Positions 58,127 through 64,000 of a stretch of DNA of 64,000 bases are shown piece after piece. Source of the stretch: Oceanispirochaeta sp. GTDB taxonomy: Bacteria > Spirochaetota > Spirochaetia > DSM-2461. Numbering within the stretch: the stretch's first letter is position 1; every line of letters starts with the position of its first letter. The notes under the pieces are model-generated. The model was not told the DNA's origin, searched no databases, and saw only the letters and a list, made by a program, of their open reading frames with translations. Position numbers and translations under genes: made by a program. Where the stretch lies: assembly GCA_963666275.2 (NCBI GenBank), contig CAXXOA010000003.1, positions 128,001-192,000 of the forward strand, in the 5' to 3' direction.

Positions 58127-58447
58127 ATGGGAAAAAGAATCAGGTATGCTCAAGAAGTTAAAGAGCGGGCAGTTCGGATGGTCTTTGATCATGAAAAAGA
58201 CTATGAATCACGGTGGGCAGCAATAATTTCAATAGCCTCAAAAACCGGGTGTACTCCGGAGTCTCTGAGAAAATGGGTAAAACAAACCGAGATAGACCGT
58301 GGTATCAAGGACGGTATTTCCAGTGAAGACCAGGCAAGAATAAAGGAACTTGAAAGAGAAGTTCGTGAGCTTCGAGAAGCCAATGAGATATTGCGTAAGG
58401 CATCAGCATATTTCGCCCAGGCGGAGCTCGACCGCCGAAAGAAATAA
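58127..58447 (+). CDS. IS3 transposase OrfA
   Basis: HTH followed by leucine zipper ELEREVRELREANEILRKASAYFAQAELDR. Confidence 0.95.
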   Translation: MGKRIRYAQEVKERAVRMVFDHEKDYESRWAAIISIASKTGCTPESLRKWVKQTEIDRGIKDGISSEDQARIKELEREVRELREANEILRKASAYFAQAELDRRKK

Positions 58448-59352
58448 TGGTCAATTTCATTGATAAGAATAGGGAAGATCATGGAGTCGAGCCTCTCTGT
58501 AAAAATATTCAGATAGCTCCATCAACCTACTACGAAATGAAATCGAGGCAATCAGATCCAGACAAAGAGCCTCCAAGAGTAAAAAGGGATAATCACCTGA
58601 AAGATGAAATCAAACGGGTCTGGTTTGAGAATAGATGTGTATATGGAGCTAAAAAAGTCTGGCAGGCCATGAATAAAGAAGGAATCCCCGTCGCCAGATG
58701 CACTGTAGAGCGTTTAATGCGTGCTATGGGGCTTCGTGGTGTTATTCGTGGTAAGAAAGTCAGGACAACAATTCCGGTGAAAGACAACAGGCCGGATGAT
58801 CTTGTAAATCGGGATTTCACCGCTTCCAGGCCAAACGAGTTGTGGGTGGCTGACTTCACCTACGTTTCCACCTGGAGGGGATTTGTCTATGTAGCTTTCA
58901 TAATCGATGTATTTTCAAGAATGATTGTCGGCTGGCGGGCATCAACGTCAATGAAAACTGATTTCACTCTAGATGCTCTCAATCAGGCATTGTGGGCAAG
59001 GCAGGTAACAGAAAAACTGATTCATCACAGTGATCGTGGGTCTCAATATCTGGCCATTTCCTATACCGAACGATTGATTGAAGCTGGAATTGATCCATCA
59101 GTTGGGAGTAAAGGGGATTCCTACGACAATGCTCTGGCAGAGACAATAAACGGTCTGTATAAGGCTGAAGTCATTCACAAAGATGGCCCCTGGCGTTCGA
59201 TTGAACAGGTAGAACTGGCAACCTTGGACTGGGTGGATTGGTATAATAACAAACGGATCATGGAACCTCTGGGATATATTTCTCCACAAGAGTTTGAAAT
59301 GATGTATTATGAACAGGAAATTAGTCTGGCAGTAACAGCCGGACTCAAGTAA
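58447..59352 (+). CDS. IS3 transposase OrfB (DDE)
   Basis: WVADFTY, HHSDRGSQY, DNALAETING; -1 frame relative to OrfA. Confidence 0.95.
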   Translation: MVNFIDKNREDHGVEPLCKNIQIAPSTYYEMKSRQSDPDKEPPRVKRDNHLKDEIKRVWFENRCVYGAKKVWQAMNKEGIPVARCTVERLMRAMGLRGVIRGKKVRTTIPVKDNRPDDLVNRDFTASRPNELWVADFTYVSTWRGFVYVAFIIDVFSRMIVGWRASTSMKTDFTLDALNQALWARQVTEKLIHHSDRGSQYLAISYTERLIEAGIDPSVGSKGDSYDNALAETINGLYKAEVIHKDGPWRSIEQVELATLDWVDWYNNKRIMEPLGYISPQEFEMMYYEQEISLAVTAGLK

Positions 59353-59705
59353 ATCTGTCTCCGGGATTCTCGGGGTGGTTCAGACCGTTAAGCTGGCGTG
59401 GTTTGTGCGAATGCAGAAACCATGATCAGTAGGACTGACAGTAGCATTTGCTTGGTACGCCTGACATGGCAATAAACTTATGAGGTGAAAGTCCTCTACA
59501 GCTACCCACGTATAGCAAACATGCTATACCAACTGTTAGCCGACGGCAAGGGCAATTCCGTGAGGAATTGTCTGGAGGAAGCCTGAGTGCAAAACCGGGA
59601 GCCCATGTACAAGAATGTGATAGAAGGCCCAGTTCTGGAGGTGAGTCAGCCAATGATGACGATGCCCCGTGGGTGAGGGATAGGGTAAATCACAGGGTTG
59701 TCCGG

Positions 59706-59747
59706 CCCTGGTCGTAAACTTCGTTTACTGCTCGGGTATGCATCCGA
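59706..59747. repeat. 42-bp hairpin mini-element, variant A (intron domain I, copy 1 only)
   Basis: CCCTGGTCGTAAACTTCGTTTACTGCTCGGGTATGCATCCGA, absent at the equivalent TGTCCGG/GGAA site of copy 2. Confidence 0.8.
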
Positions 59748-59771
59748 GGAAAGTTTATTGTCTTATTCGGG

Positions 59772-59872
59772 AACCGAAAGCCGTTTCGGCTGGAGGTTGT
59801 TATTCAAGCGGCATGGCCGCAACCTTATCGAACACAGATCGAAGCAGCTTGCTGCGTAGAACTTTATTCGGG
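59772..59872. repeat. 92-bp multi-hairpin insertion plus duplicated TTATTCGGG (copy 1 only)
   Basis: TTATTCGGG at 59763-59771 and 59864-59872; copy 2 has one copy and no insert. Confidence 0.8.
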
Positions 59873-60203
59873 GAGATCTGTCTGCAAGGCGGTAACGGCG
59901 GTTTGACCGTGAGAATCCGGAGGATACCGGGGTAACAAATCCAGGCCTATCAGGGGATGACACTCTGATAAGGAGCCGTTTATACGGAACACAAAGAAGT
60001 CGTCACAGCGATTCAAACCGGATGATACAGCGTCAGCAGGAGTAATTCTACTGATAAGCAGACAGAAGTCAGCAGAAGGCATAGTAGCCAACGCCCGGAG
60101 TAATGTCCGGTTCATGGTGAAGGTCTGAACATTTCACAAGGAGGAGCCTGATGGTTCTCAAAGGAACAATTTCAGTTTATGCCGGAATCACTTTTGGCGG
60201 ACC

Positions 60204-61526
60204 ATGGAGAAACCAGCCTTGAACGAATCTATGATGGATTTGATTCTGTCGCAAGATAACATGCGTGATGCCTGGAAACGGGTCAAACGCAACGGTGGAA
60301 GTCCGGGGATTGATGATATATCAATCTCTCAATTTCCTGATTACCTTAAAAATCGGTGGCCAAGAATCAAACGAGCTTTGCTCAATGGGTACTATGTACC
60401 TTCTCCGGTGCTGAGGGTGGAAATCCCGAAGAAATCCGGAGGCTGGTCGCAAACAAGTTTGCTGCTCGCCCATGCAACCGGGGGAAAACGGATGCTGGGA
60501 ATCCCGACAGTTCTAGACAGGGTTATCCAGCAGGCTATTTCACAGGTTCTGAATCCCATATTTGATCCGGATTTCTCGGAGCATAGCTATGGATTCAGAC
60601 CGGGAAGATCGGCTCACGGAGCAGTGAAACAGGTAAATCAACATGTCAAATCCGGGTATAGATACGCCGTGGATCTGGACTTGGAAAAGTTCTTTGATAC
60701 AGTTAATCATGATATCCTGATGCATTTTGTGGCTGTAAAAGTCTGGGACAAATCTGTCCTCAGACTCATCGGCCGTTACCTGAGAGCCGGTATTCAGTTG
60801 GACAATGGAAAAGTGATTCCTACAGACATCGGCACACCCCAAGGCGGGCCCTTATCACCTCTGCTTTCCAATATCCTCCTTGATCGGTTGGATATGGAAC
60901 TGGAGAGAAGAAATGTGAGGTTCGCACGGTATGCAGATGACACTATCCTTTTAACGAAGAGATTGTGTGATGCTAGGAAGATCCTACAGGAAGTTTCAAT
61001 ATTTCTGGTAAGGAAATTGAAATTGGTAGTGAATCAGGAGAAAACGAAAGTTGCAAAGATAAGGGAGTGCAGTTTCCTGGGATTCACATTCAAGGGTAAG
61101 AAGATTCGCTGGACAGAGTCGTCCTTTGAGGATTTTCGGTATCATCTGAAATATCTGACAAGGCGTTCCTGGGGTGTTTCCATGGAATACAGAATCGGGA
61201 AACTCAATGAGTATATCCGGGGCTGGATGAACTACTATGGGATCTCCCAATATTACAGCCCTATACAGAATCTTGATGACTGGCTCCGTAGGAGGATTCG
61301 CATGTGCTACTGGAAACAGTGGCGATATCCCAGAACGAAAGTCAGGAAACTGATGGAACTGGGAATTCCGAAAGATTTTGCCATTATCACCGGTGCCAGT
61401 AGTAAATCCTATTGGCATCTCTCCAAGTCTTACGCTACCAATGCAGCTATGTCCAATAAATGGCTGGAAGAGCAGGGATTGGTCAATATCAAATATCTGT
61501 GGTGTAAAGCCCAGGGATATATCTGA
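60204..61526 (+). CDS. ltrA: Group II intron reverse transcriptase/maturase (class C, no endonuclease domain)
   Basis: SPGID, LGIPTVLDRVIQQA, SYGFRPGRS, GTPQGGPLSPLL, RYADD, GWMNYY, YWKQW. Confidence 0.96.
   Translation: MEKPALNESMMDLILSQDNMRDAWKRVKRNGGSPGIDDISISQFPDYLKNRWPRIKRALLNGYYVPSPVLRVEIPKKSGGWSQTSLLLAHATGGKRMLGIPTVLDRVIQQAISQVLNPIFDPDFSEHSYGFRPGRSAHGAVKQVNQHVKSGYRYAVDLDLEKFFDTVNHDILMHFVAVKVWDKSVLRLIGRYLRAGIQLDNGKVIPTDIGTPQGGPLSPLLSNILLDRLDMELERRNVRFARYADDTILLTKRLCDARKILQEVSIFLVRKLKLVVNQEKTKVAKIRECSFLGFTFKGKKIRWTESSFEDFRYHLKYLTRRSWGVSMEYRIGKLNEYIRGWMNYYGISQYYSPIQNLDDWLRRRIRMCYWKQWRYPRTKVRKLMELGIPKDFAIITGASSKSYWHLSKSYATNAAMSNKWLEEQGLVNIKYLWCKAQGYI
60440..60481. repeat. 42-bp hairpin mini-element, variant B (in frame within the RT gene)
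   Basis: AGGCTGGTCGCAAACAAGTTTGCTGCTCGCCCATGCAACCGG; removing it restores EIPKKSGGKRMLGIP. Confidence 0.8.
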
Positions 61527-61660
61527 TCAAATCAGGATTTCGTTTGCTCCATGGAGTGAACCGCCCCGTGCGGACCCGCATGCGGGGTGGTGTGGGGGCT
61601 GGAGGTTAAAAGCCTCCGGCTACCCGATTTATCTAGCCCTCATATTTTCTGTTCAGTAAT

Positions 61661-61981
61661 TTAAGATGTGAGTCTATAATCCAGAATATGTGGTTCTCTT
61701 TCTAACAACTCTAATAATATTTTTGTTGAACCTGTGGGTGTTCGTTTTCCCTGTTCCCATTGCCTAACCGATGATGCACTTACATTGAGTAATTTCGCAA
61801 ATACTGCCTGACTAAGATGTATTGATTCTCGTATTTTCTTTATATCTTCTGCTGAAACATTTACTTCAGGTATGTTAATTCCCAGTGATTTTAATTCCTT
61901 GTCAGTGAAGGATGTGGGAAGACCTGCATCGATTAGATCTTGTACAGTTTCGGCAATAGAATCTTTTATTGAATCTCTCAT
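61661..61981 (-). CDS. HTH (XRE) antitoxin, HigA-like
   Basis: IRESIHLSQAVFAKLLNVSASSVRQWEQGKRTP. Confidence 0.9.
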   Translation of the reverse strand: MRDSIKDSIAETVQDLIDAGLPTSFTDKELKSLGINIPEVNVSAEDIKKIRESIHLSQAVFAKLLNVSASSVRQWEQGKRTPTGSTKILLELLEREPHILDYRLTS

Positions 61982-61982
61982 A

Positions 61983-62351
61983 CTATTCCCCTATTATCTG
62001 CAAAGCATTATTTTTTATGGCAGTATCTAGTTGCTTATTGTTCAAATTTAATAAATCTTTGCCAATTTTCTTGAAATACTCCAATTCTTTACTGGAGATA
62101 TTATCCATTTCATTCTTCGAAAAACCATATATAAATACAGCTCTGTCATTTTCTTTAAAGACCAGAATTGTCCTGAAACCTCCACTTTTACCGGAACCTT
62201 TCCTGGCGATTCTGACTTTGAATATATTGGATCCGAGTTTGACCGATGATAAATCTGATTCAAGATTACCGATAGCATCCTGAAGATTCTTATCAGCAAT
62301 ATCATTCTTTTTCGCCCATTTGGTGAACCATTTAGTTTTCAGTTTCTTCAC
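61983..62351 (-). CDS. RelE/HigB-family toxin
   Basis: TKWFTKWAKK, KVRIARKGSGKSGGFR, FIYGFSKNE; toxin-first gene order. Confidence 0.9.
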   Translation of the reverse strand: MKKLKTKWFTKWAKKNDIADKNLQDAIGNLESDLSSVKLGSNIFKVRIARKGSGKSGGFRTILVFKENDRAVFIYGFSKNEMDNISSKELEYFKKIGKDLLNLNNKQLDTAIKNNALQIIGE

Positions 62352-62357
62352 AATTCA

Positions 62358-62386
62358 AATATAACACATTGTGGTATAGCAGTCAT
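62358..62386 (-). promoter_or_regulatory. TA promoter with overlapping operator palindrome
   Basis: ATGACT-17 nt-TATATT on the minus strand, 6 nt before the GTG start; palindrome TATAACACA-T-TGTGGTATA at 62360-62378. Confidence 0.65.
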
Positions 62387-62679
62387 GATCTATTTTAGTT
62401 TACTTATATGATTATTTATGTGATCCAATTCAGAAAGTAGTTTTTCATTGCTTTGGTATTATTCTGATTGTACAAACTCGGAGTGTTTTATTACTATCTC
62501 TTGCACCTGCGGTTTTCTATTTAAATGGATTGATCCAGGATAATGATGTTCATAGCATTCATTCCAATTCTCATGGTTATATCTATATATTTCTTCCATC
62601 TTCCGAAGGAAGATTTAAATGATTATAAATTTGAAGAGAGAATCAGTTTAGAAAAATCAATTATCTGATAGCCAATGCT

Positions 62680-62779
62680 AGATAACGCCCGCATCAGCTG
62701 CAATTTTGTCCCGTAGGGTTGGCGACCTTATTGAGTATTCAAAAAGGGTGACAAAAAAATTGTCAGTTGCATGCGCTTG
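62680..62779 (-). other. attC site interrupted by intron copy 2
   Basis: AGATAACGCCCGCATCAGCTGCAATTTTGTC pairs with GACAAAAAAATTGTCAGTTGCATGCGCTTG, with extrahelical C and T on the 3' arm; GCTAGATAAC is the complement of G/TTATCTAGC at 61629. Confidence 0.88.
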
Positions 62780-63385
62780 GTACGCCCGACATGGCAATAA
62801 ACTTATGAGGTGAAAGTCCTCTACAGCTACCCACGTATAGTAAACATGCTATACCAACTGTTAGCCGACGGCAAGGGCAATTCCGTGAGGAATTGTCTGG
62901 AGGAAGCCTGAGTGCAAAACCGGGAGCCCATGCACAAGAATGTGATAGAAGGCCCAGTTCCGGAGGCGAGTCAGCCAATGATGACGATGCCCCGTGGGTG
63001 AGGGATAGGGTAAATCACAGGGTTGTCCGGGGAATGTTTCTTGTCTTATTCGGGGAGATCTGTCTGCAAGGCGGTAACGTCGGTTTGACCGTGAGAATCC
63101 GGAGGATACCGGAGCAACAAGTCCAGGCCTATCAGGGGGTGACACTCTGATAAGGAGCCGTTTATACGGAACACAAAGAAGTCGTCACAGCGCTTCAAAC
63201 CGGATGATACAGCGTCAGCAGGAGTAATTCTACTGATAAGCGGACAGAAGTCAGCAGAAGGCATAGTAGCTAACGCCCGGAGTAATGTCCGGTTCATGGT
63301 GAAGGCCTGAACATTTCACAAGGAGGAGCCTTATGGTTCTCAAAGGAACAATTTCAGTTTATGCCGGAATCACTTTTGGCGGACC

Positions 63386-64000
63386 ATGGAGAAACCAGCC
63401 TTGAACGAATCTATGATGGATTTGATTTTATCCTCTGAGAATATGCACAAAGCCTGGAAACAGGTCAAACGCAATGGAGGTAGCCCTGGAATCGACGGTA
63501 TCACTGTCGAGAAGTTTCCAGGATATCTGAAAACCAGATGGCCTAGAATCAAACGAGCTTTGCTCAACGGGTACTATGTACCTTCTCCGGTGCTGAGGGT
63601 AGAAATCCCGAAGAAATCCGGAGGCTGGTCGCAAACAAGTTTGCTGCTCGCCCATGCAACCGGGGGAAAACGGATGCTGGGAATCCCGACAGTTCTAGAC
63701 AGGGTTATCCAGCAGGCTATTTCACAGGTTCTGAATCCCATATTTGATCCGGATTTCTCGGAGCATAGCTATGGATTCAGACCGGGAAGATCGGCTCACG
63801 GAGCAGTGAAACAGGTAAATCAACATGTCAAATCCGGGTATAGATACGCCGTGGATCTGGACTTGGAAAAGTTCTTTGATACAGTTAATCATGATATCCT
63901 GATGCATTTTGTGGCTGTAAAAGTCCGGGACAAATCTGTCCTCAGACTCATCGGCCGTTACCTGAGAGCCGGTATTCAGTTGGACAATGGAAAAGTGATT
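63386..64000 (+). CDS. ltrA: Group II intron RT/maturase, copy 2 (partial)
   Basis: MEKPALNESMMDLILSSENMHKAWKQVKRNGGSPGID..., open to the window end. Confidence 0.93.
   Translation, partial: MEKPALNESMMDLILSSENMHKAWKQVKRNGGSPGIDGITVEKFPGYLKTRWPRIKRALLNGYYVPSPVLRVEIPKKSGGWSQTSLLLAHATGGKRMLGIPTVLDRVIQQAISQVLNPIFDPDFSEHSYGFRPGRSAHGAVKQVNQHVKSGYRYAVDLDLEKFFDTVNHDILMHFVAVKVRDKSVLRLIGRYLRAGIQLDNGKVI
63622..63663. repeat. 42-bp hairpin mini-element, variant B (copy 2 RT gene)
   Basis: Identical to 60440-60481. Confidence 0.8.

Follow-up and report, generated by a model that had tools for sequence, protein, structure and literature searches.

The window analyzed here, a 64,000-nucleotide stretch of the Oceanispirochaeta sp. 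genome (contig CAXXOA010000003.1, positions 128,001 to 192,000), contains two copies of a group IIC intron that are interrupted by short hairpin-forming inserts, here called mini-elements. Variant A lies in domain I of intron copy 1, and variant B lies in frame in the gene for the intron-encoded reverse transcriptase (RT). The host features, the inserts and two empty alleles are as follows (CM, covariance model).

59455..61628, plus strand: group IIC intron copy 1 (host), with Rfam D1-D4 matches and an RT match to GsI-IIC at E = 1e-118
62780..64000, plus strand: group IIC intron copy 2 (host), extending past the window end
60204..61526, plus strand: intron-encoded RT/maturase, 440 amino acids including a 14-residue insert
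59706..59747, minus strand: variant A, intron domain I, before GG; top-strand stem-foot dinucleotide CC; CM score 63 bits
60441..60482, minus strand: variant B, in frame in the RT gene, adding 14 residues; stem-foot dinucleotide GG; CM score 55 bits
63623..63664, minus strand: second variant B, with the same sequence as the first, in intron copy 2
63026..63032, plus strand: empty allele of the variant A site in copy 2; insertion point 63030/63031
59634..59641, plus strand: empty allele of site 1 (domain I) in copy 1; insertion point 59639/59640

The genome contains 11 copies of the intron, and three insertion sites are polymorphic among them. The variant A site is filled in four copies and empty in seven, including copy 2, from which a preliminary description of the window had correctly reported variant A to be absent. 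The RT site is filled by variant B in 5 of the 11 copies and empty in 6, and site 1, which the preliminary description had not noted, is filled in 2 by a B-like unit with a different tail. The 14 residues that variant B had been predicted to add to the RT are indeed an insertion, being absent from the six empty copies and forming a clean gap in alignments with the GsI-IIC RT and a second solved IIC maturase.

The empty alleles also define the ends of the inserts. At the empty RT site TCCGG is followed by A; thus, B was inserted before GG and spans 60441-60482 (63623-63664 in copy 2). The preliminary description had placed it in both intron copies, as we did, with each span starting one base earlier (60440-60481 and 63622-63663). 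It had also described the inserts as following TCCGG and ending in a near repeat of that word, as in a 5-bp target duplication. We found this not to be the case, because the empty RT site has A after TCCGG and the tails differ between sites. Sites 1 and 3 share the same core with different six-base tails, indicating that the tail is part of the element and does not derive from the target site. No target duplication was present at the resolved empty alleles.

Related introns contain three further insertion sites, with inserts of 42, 41, 40 and 42 bp, and one of these sites was hit by different variants in two genomes. The length of exactly 42 bp noted for variants A and B is correct for those two and does not extend to the family, whose tandem units measure 40 to 45 bp. 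Nor is a codon-multiple length a property of the element, since the 40- and 41-bp inserts break the RT reading frame in a related intron; the in-frame cases are those able to persist in genes. All six sites in this group II intron family are in the sense orientation. With respect to the A and RT sites, every one of the four possible filled/empty combinations is represented among the 11 intron copies, so intron copies must have recombined or lost inserts. The spread of variant B is therefore no proof that the padded RT works. We infer that the intron is a tolerant host in which single insertions multiplied as the intron copied itself and were reassorted when its copies recombined.

Folding strand and insertion junctions

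Read along the bottom strand, each unit of 40 to 45 nt consists of a 10-11-nt tail (N1-3, GG, one base, TGCAT) followed by a hairpin. The hairpin has a variable foot of 2 to 3 bp, an internal loop, a freely covarying stem of 5 to 7 bp, and a cap that reads C(GNA)G, C(GNNA)G or C(TT)G. The internal loop is conserved and two-fold symmetric, with GAGCA facing GACCA, and its bottom-strand pairs are G-A, A-C, G-C, C-A and A-G. The two heptamers of the core are direct near-repeats.

The stem covaries, as the preliminary description had noted from two variants with a shared core. Among 78 aligned units of the same length, 95.6% of cells were paired and 8 of the 11 pairs had changed on both sides. The covariation score was 0.61, compared with 0.14 in shuffled alignments (reached in 0/500) and at most 0.10 in slid controls. 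Of 290 distinct copies, 272 had a paired foot dinucleotide, including 92 of the 105 with non-GG feet. The heptamers and the tail belonged to the search pattern, and the loops were unconstrained; few variants were recovered when one pair was relaxed at a time. Together with the filled and empty alleles, this covariation bears out the earlier suggestion of a non-autonomous mobile hairpin that is conserved in structure and not in stem sequence.

The cap distinguishes the two strands. Of 122 distinct stems whose loop has an odd number of bases, 77 have GNA on the bottom strand and 2 have it on the top strand; among 35 longer even loops, GNNA is found on the bottom strand in 21 and on the top strand in 1. 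The closing pair was C-G in 103 of the 122 stems, and the third loop base was not limited to purines, unlike the requirement for GNRA loops in RNA. Passages of PMC3201870 and PMC13037366 describe GNA and GNNA caps with C-G closure as extra-stable DNA mini-hairpins with a much weaker RNA counterpart. Variants of the G10/C24 pair included five that were compensatory, four that could wobble only on the bottom strand and none that could wobble only on the top strand. The DNA-type GNA and GNNA loops of the bottom strand point to folding as single-stranded bottom-strand DNA, which is quite probably the functional form of the element.

The junction statistics show insertion in front of a dinucleotide, in most cases GG, with the tail and the foot travelling along with the element. 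GG followed the tail in 153 of 230 last units, compared with 31 to 42 at control offsets; these junction copies were de-duplicated by their flanks alone and include related, non-independent genomes. Where the foot was not GG, the dinucleotide after the element matched the foot in 29 of 71 cases (permutation mean, 10.8; 0/5000 permutations) and was GG in 30 of 71. When the foot differed from the target, it was kept at the left end of the element in 26 cases, and the reverse was seen in 1. This asymmetry argues for an exchange of the bottom strand only, 3' of the dinucleotide, since a 2-bp staggered double-strand exchange would give both types. CC lies one to five bases upstream at most of the resolved empty sites, with one exception, and resembles the element's own tail. 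Overall, CC was found upstream of the insertion point in 67 of 198 cases versus 37 to 49 in control windows, which is a tendency only. Directly after 44 of 230 last units came a Shine-Dalgarno-like word and a start codon, an arrangement seen in 3 of 198 cases in a mirror control; landing before such a word can be attributed to the preference for GG.

Family size and landing places

The further copies and filled/empty pairs that the preliminary description had proposed to look for by pattern and covariance searches were both found, and the element is amplified in this genome. A pattern search returned 29 exact core matches, nhmmer returned 33 matches at E < 1e-5 (best E on the reversed genome, 6.7), and the CM returned 37 at E ≤ 1. 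CM copy numbers in three genomes ranged from 37 to 82, the highest being in the spirochaete G182. Within the genus, all 10 genomes had core matches, as did 19 of 24 genomes in the family; the reversed core pattern matched 5 of 41 genomes once or twice, and single matches outside the family are weak. Several relatives had zero matches. With a stricter pattern, 4 of 300 further genomes of the phylum matched, one of them with 54 copies.

A scan of GTDB gave at least 121 loci, of which at least 85 passed a stem-and-tail filter. Among the 54 titled loci listed, 38 were from Bacillota, 14 from spirochaetes and 1 each from Fibrobacterales and Geobacteraceae. By whole-genome CM search, two Bacillota genomes had 26 and 13 copies, and a Fibrobacterales genome had 11. 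A metagenome scan added at least 123 loci, and a strict viral scan added 13, which read by eye as pieces of tailed prophages; a first, looser viral scan was set aside because its matches were mostly due to chance. As judged from sequence, the family spans at least three phyla, represented by Spirochaetota, Bacillota and Fibrobacterales. No Rfam family matched either the window unit at the gathering score or four array loci at E ≤ 5. Word-based searches of open-access text, which did not query by sequence and did not extend to supplementary motif lists, retrieved no description of the motif, and none is given in passages of PMC3116915, PMC3184786, PMC3733652, PMC3001079 and the preprint 10.64898/2026.09.22.753630. 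It is a real cross-phylum family that has apparently not been described before.

Copies occur singly, in tandem and nested, with units inserted into each other. The arrays run head to tail with a period of 40 to 45 bp (5, 20, 21, 12, 1 and 1 of 60 junctions at 40, 41, 42, 43, 44 and 45 bp, respectively), and 6 of 51 tandem junctions join different stems. Insertions lie inside coding genes, broken transposases, palindromic repeats, rRNA spacers and the family's own copies. Broken IS110-, IS21- and IS607-like elements also carry them (family names partly from reading translations). Some copies sit in the loops of another palindromic repeat, the empty form of which is common, and others lie in four 23S-5S spacers, antisense cases included. 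One copy begins at the first base of a tRNA-Met gene, and another lies in a duplicated tRNA 3' end with filled and empty alleles. For one tRNA-linked copy, contigs of the same sample contained no empty allele, which is uninformative either way. Among 140 flanking open reading frames (ORFs), the first 140 of 174 analyzed with Pfam, the families were unrelated and the downstream genes shared no function.

Several loci have features of their own. A tRNA-Met 3' end is duplicated approximately 25 kb downstream of the gene (C2:623366 and C2:648440-648620), with elements at both places, which suggests an integrated island. Two Paenibacillus species have in-frame copies at matching positions within very long ORFs (L100 and L106). 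In two other spirochaete genomes, G182 and G083 (L280-L288), most copies lie inside larger dispersed repeats with conserved AT-rich flanks. A TnpB gene at L301 has three copies nested one within another in its 3' non-coding part (L301:3830-3940). This gene, which lies between two copies, was considered as a mobilizer and rejected, as the nested copies in its 3' region mark it as a host.

Mode of movement

The family is almost certainly mobile. On balance, we consider it somewhat probable that it is a gene-less, non-autonomous mini-element that moves as folded single-stranded DNA by one-strand exchange. In this model, the bottom strand alone would be cut out and joined in, 3' of a dinucleotide that is mostly CC, with a small closed single-stranded hairpin as the likely intermediate. 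An enzyme acting in trans, most likely of the HUH type as in REP and IS200/IS605 systems, would read the internal loop and the tail. The junction would be rebuilt at each insertion, which would yield tandem and nested copies. A similar logic is described for REPs and IS200/IS605 in passages of PMC8266576 and 10.1101/279083, in which a single-stranded bulged hairpin with a tag 5' of its foot has a short cut site, a dinucleotide for REP and TnpA, chosen by base pairing.

We searched for a mobilizing enzyme by co-occurrence, comparing carriers with genomes having 0 or 1 core match (the single matches of G029, G034 and G036 were taken uninspected), and in the neighborhood of the elements. The enzyme-family searches used a loose first filter that divergent genes can escape. 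As in the preliminary description, which saw no mobilizing gene, none emerged among flanking ORFs or by co-occurrence. Copies flanking a transposase or HUH nuclease gene, which had been suggested as a test, were not found at the Y1 loci searched. All-against-all clustering of 2610 ORFs from 275 loci detected no recurring protein family beside the elements except hosts such as the intron RT, and no enzyme recurred among ORFs between copy pairs or in the 13 viral loci. One Y1 gene was present among the 140 flanking ORFs, approximately 480 bp from an element. A group II maturase was found in 8 of 14 carriers versus 2 of 12 genomes with 0 or 1 core match, with no match in G182 and G018. Integron integrase was found in 13 of 18 carriers versus 7 of 12 others, IS110 in 10 of 18 versus 4 of 12, and IS607 TnpA in 0 of 30 genomes. 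Neighboring copies were in the same orientation in 19 cases versus 7, and these cases are not independent. The genome contains seven Y1 transposase-like genes of the RAYT type (for example, at C2:585130 and C1:510108) that are unrelated to the element; several RAYT-type loci are preceded by a short GC-rich word or followed by its reverse complement.

IS91-like genes are often hit. Copies were found at 2 of 11 IS91-like loci picked by protein similarity and at 0 of 20 Y1 loci. All four CM matches of G027 overlap IS91-like matches, and one IS91-like gene holds three inserts. Of the element loci listed, IS91-like genes made up 3 of 73 from metagenomes and 0 of 57 from GTDB. According to passages of PMC13181058, IS91 moves as one strand only. 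Insertion in one orientation into an IS91-like single-stranded intermediate was considered and dropped, as both orientations occur. The simplest reading is that IS91-like genes are targets, dispensable DNA that offers a safe landing place; it is also possible that an IS91-like enzyme was a passing mobilizer.

Several observations weigh against one-strand movement by a HUH-type enzyme. None of six tested enzyme families was present in all carriers, and a Y1 transposase was found in only 4 of 14 carriers versus 3 of 12 genomes with 0 or 1 core match. No element was found in 20 Y1 loci by CM or in 6 further Y1 loci by pattern. IS91-like Y2 genes were present in 8 of 41 genomes and, with the query used, were not found in the Oceanispirochaeta genome or in most high-copy relatives; there was no sense/antisense rule in IS91-like hosts. 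Copies outside introns in the Oceanispirochaeta genome showed no clear bias toward either replication strand, such as the lagging-strand template (11 versus 12), a comparison limited by hosts that are themselves mobile. No excised or circular form was observed. At the junctions, 24 of 86 paired non-GG elements were followed by neither GG nor their own dinucleotide. Part of the core's invariance comes from the search pattern itself, and the genomes compared include relatives that do not count as independent. In standard energy models the unit does not stand out (z = -1.4 to +0.3), because pairs such as those of the internal loop score poorly in nearest-neighbor energies. Finally, one motif is conserved from phylum to phylum, in contrast to REPs, which passages of 10.1101/279083 describe as species-specific.

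In one rival view, the hairpin moves as a single strand without a dedicated transposase, joined by a conserved host enzyme (a topoisomerase, recombinase, repair or priming protein) or by the fold itself. The family would then be minimal selfish DNA, a closed single-stranded hairpin of 40 to 45 nt with no transposase of its own and a target dinucleotide chosen by stem-foot pairing. We offer this description tentatively, as the host-enzyme explanation seems unlikely. It is favored by the lack of any one of the six mobile-element enzyme families common to all carriers, by the single motif shared by Spirochaetota, Bacillota and Fibrobacterales, and by the absence, hosts aside, of a recurring protein family in the 275 loci. 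However, the patchy spread (4 of 300 other genomes of the phylum and zero in several relatives) is explained more simply by a transient mobile enzyme, and the loose first filter may have missed divergent genes. Alternatively, the element could be a parasite of retro-elements, with its top-strand transcript copied by an RT such as that of the intron and the folded bottom-strand cDNA inserted. The cDNA would correspond to the bottom strand, all six sites in one group II intron family are in the sense orientation, and the maturase domain is more frequent in carriers (8 of 14 versus 2 of 12). We regard this as rather improbable in light of the lack of a maturase match in G182, with its 82 CM matches, and in G018, the antisense copies in rRNA spacers and IS91-like genes, and the absence of a target duplication or retro-type tail.

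The abundance of copies just before ribosome-binding sites, often in tandem, could instead reflect a regulatory structure in leaders, selected chiefly by the host, with spread being secondary. The 44 of 230 last units that abut a Shine-Dalgarno-like word and start codon (mirror control, 3 of 198) fit this view. We consider it very unlikely, as copies also lie in coding genes, broken transposases, palindromic repeats, rRNA spacers and the family's own copies, the downstream genes have no common function, and the preference for GG accounts for harmless landing on a Shine-Dalgarno word. About as unlikely is a double-stranded MITE (miniature inverted-repeat transposable element) or a substrate of a serine or IS110-type recombinase, with a GG core and the heptamers as binding sites. 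GG at most junctions and the direct near-repetition of the heptamers would suit such a substrate, but stem covariation and strand-specific loops would not; the 26:1 junction asymmetry weakens it further, IS607 TnpA was found in 0 of 30 genomes, and IS110 was found in only 10 of 18 carriers.

Related repeats and the setting of the host intron

Among known systems, a REP singlet or an IS200/IS605 miniature with one hairpin would come closest to the mini-element in mode of action. Like REPs with TnpA-REP/RAYT, as described in passages of PMC8266576, 10.1101/279083, PMC3116915 and PMC3733652, the mini-element is an imperfect hairpin in the 20-50-nt range with a conserved bulge, a strand-specific fold, a conserved tag 5' of the foot, a dinucleotide junction, and dispersed and tandem copies. 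We do not class it as a REP because the REP tag and a linked transposase are lacking. In place of a GTAG/GTGG or CGTC tag, it has the top-strand tail consensus ATGCA-N-CC and the bottom-strand foot TGCAT, and no tnpA-REP/RAYT was linked to it in the Y1 loci searched (0/20 by CM and 0/6 by pattern). It also differs in having tens of copies instead of hundreds, a sequence common to several phyla, and single units that insert, coding genes included. Unlike the inverted doublets of REPINs and BIMEs, single units fill empty sites and arrays are direct and head to tail; close inverted pairs are rare (L072 and L311). With IS200/IS605 derivatives, it shares single-strand logic, the lack of a target duplication and a target word resembling the element's end, as far as passages of PMC8266576 and 10.1101/279083 describe them. 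It differs from them in having one hairpin instead of left and right ends, two-base instead of 4-5-base specificity, and a variable tail length. No autonomous IS200/IS605-type parent was found, the TnpB gene at L301 being a host and no Y1 locus having the hairpin.

In kind, as far as partial accounts allow, the family is close to the small dispersed repeats (SDRs) of cyanobacteria. SDRs, reported by Elhai et al. in 2008, are said to be 21-27 nt long, to nest and to show compensatory changes, with an unknown mobilizer. Passages of PMC5861425 and PMC3116915 present those of the Nostocaceae as very small, structure-conserved, apparently mobile repeats with a site preference, and PMC5861425 places none outside Nostocaceae among HIP1-rich cyanobacteria. 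The mini-element, likened to them by description and not by SDR sequences, occurs in other phyla, differs in sequence and is longer. MITEs and protein-coding palindromes such as RPE are likewise gene-less repeats reportedly able to sit in frame in proteins (in part from passages of PMC3184786). The mini-element is about one third of the RPE size listed there, and its length is not tied to codons. The MITE-like anatomy initially proposed does not apply, as there are no terminal inverted repeats at both ends, the hairpin stops 10-11 nt before the right end, and there is no fixed target-site duplication.

Very small mobile hairpins have been noted before. This family provides natural variants in the hundreds, precise pairs of filled and empty alleles, a defined folding strand and a junction rule. 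If that rule is true, a two-base change in the stem foot would redirect insertion. Carriers include the culturable Paenibacillus and Cohnella, and a 42-mer oligonucleotide would be enough to fish for the enzyme. The family breaks or pads genes of other mobile elements, and it lands on ribosome-binding sites and tRNA starts.

The host intron lies among other mobile DNA. Intron copy 1 is oriented opposite to its flanking genes, within a cassette array. We infer that the copies at 59455 and 62780, like those of the C1 intron cluster, occupy attC-like sites of cassette arrays, in keeping with the IIC-attC behavior of IIC introns described in passages of PMC3001079. The sole integron integrase match of the genome is at C1:1063760, beside the C1 intron cluster (C1:1038000-1064700); the array in the window may therefore lack an integrase of its own. 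An IS3-type element with an ALIL pseudoknot (58127-59384 of the window) lies directly upstream of intron copy 1. A separate insert adjoins variant A.

59772..59872, strand not assigned: 101-bp hairpin-rich insert in intron domain I, not of the mini-element family

This insert has a 9-bp direct repeat and four or five hairpins (fold z = -3.2), and it is present in 3 of the 11 intron copies and nowhere else in the genome. Plasmid searches with it and with the mini-element unit gave no matches. Both intron copies filled at site 1 have a 24-bp hairpin insert just before that site (C1 near 1038180 and C3 near 269880). In the intron copy at C1:1038322-1038370, a deletion extends from a chimeric element to the position equivalent to site 4 of a related intron, and it probably arose by recombination between two elements.

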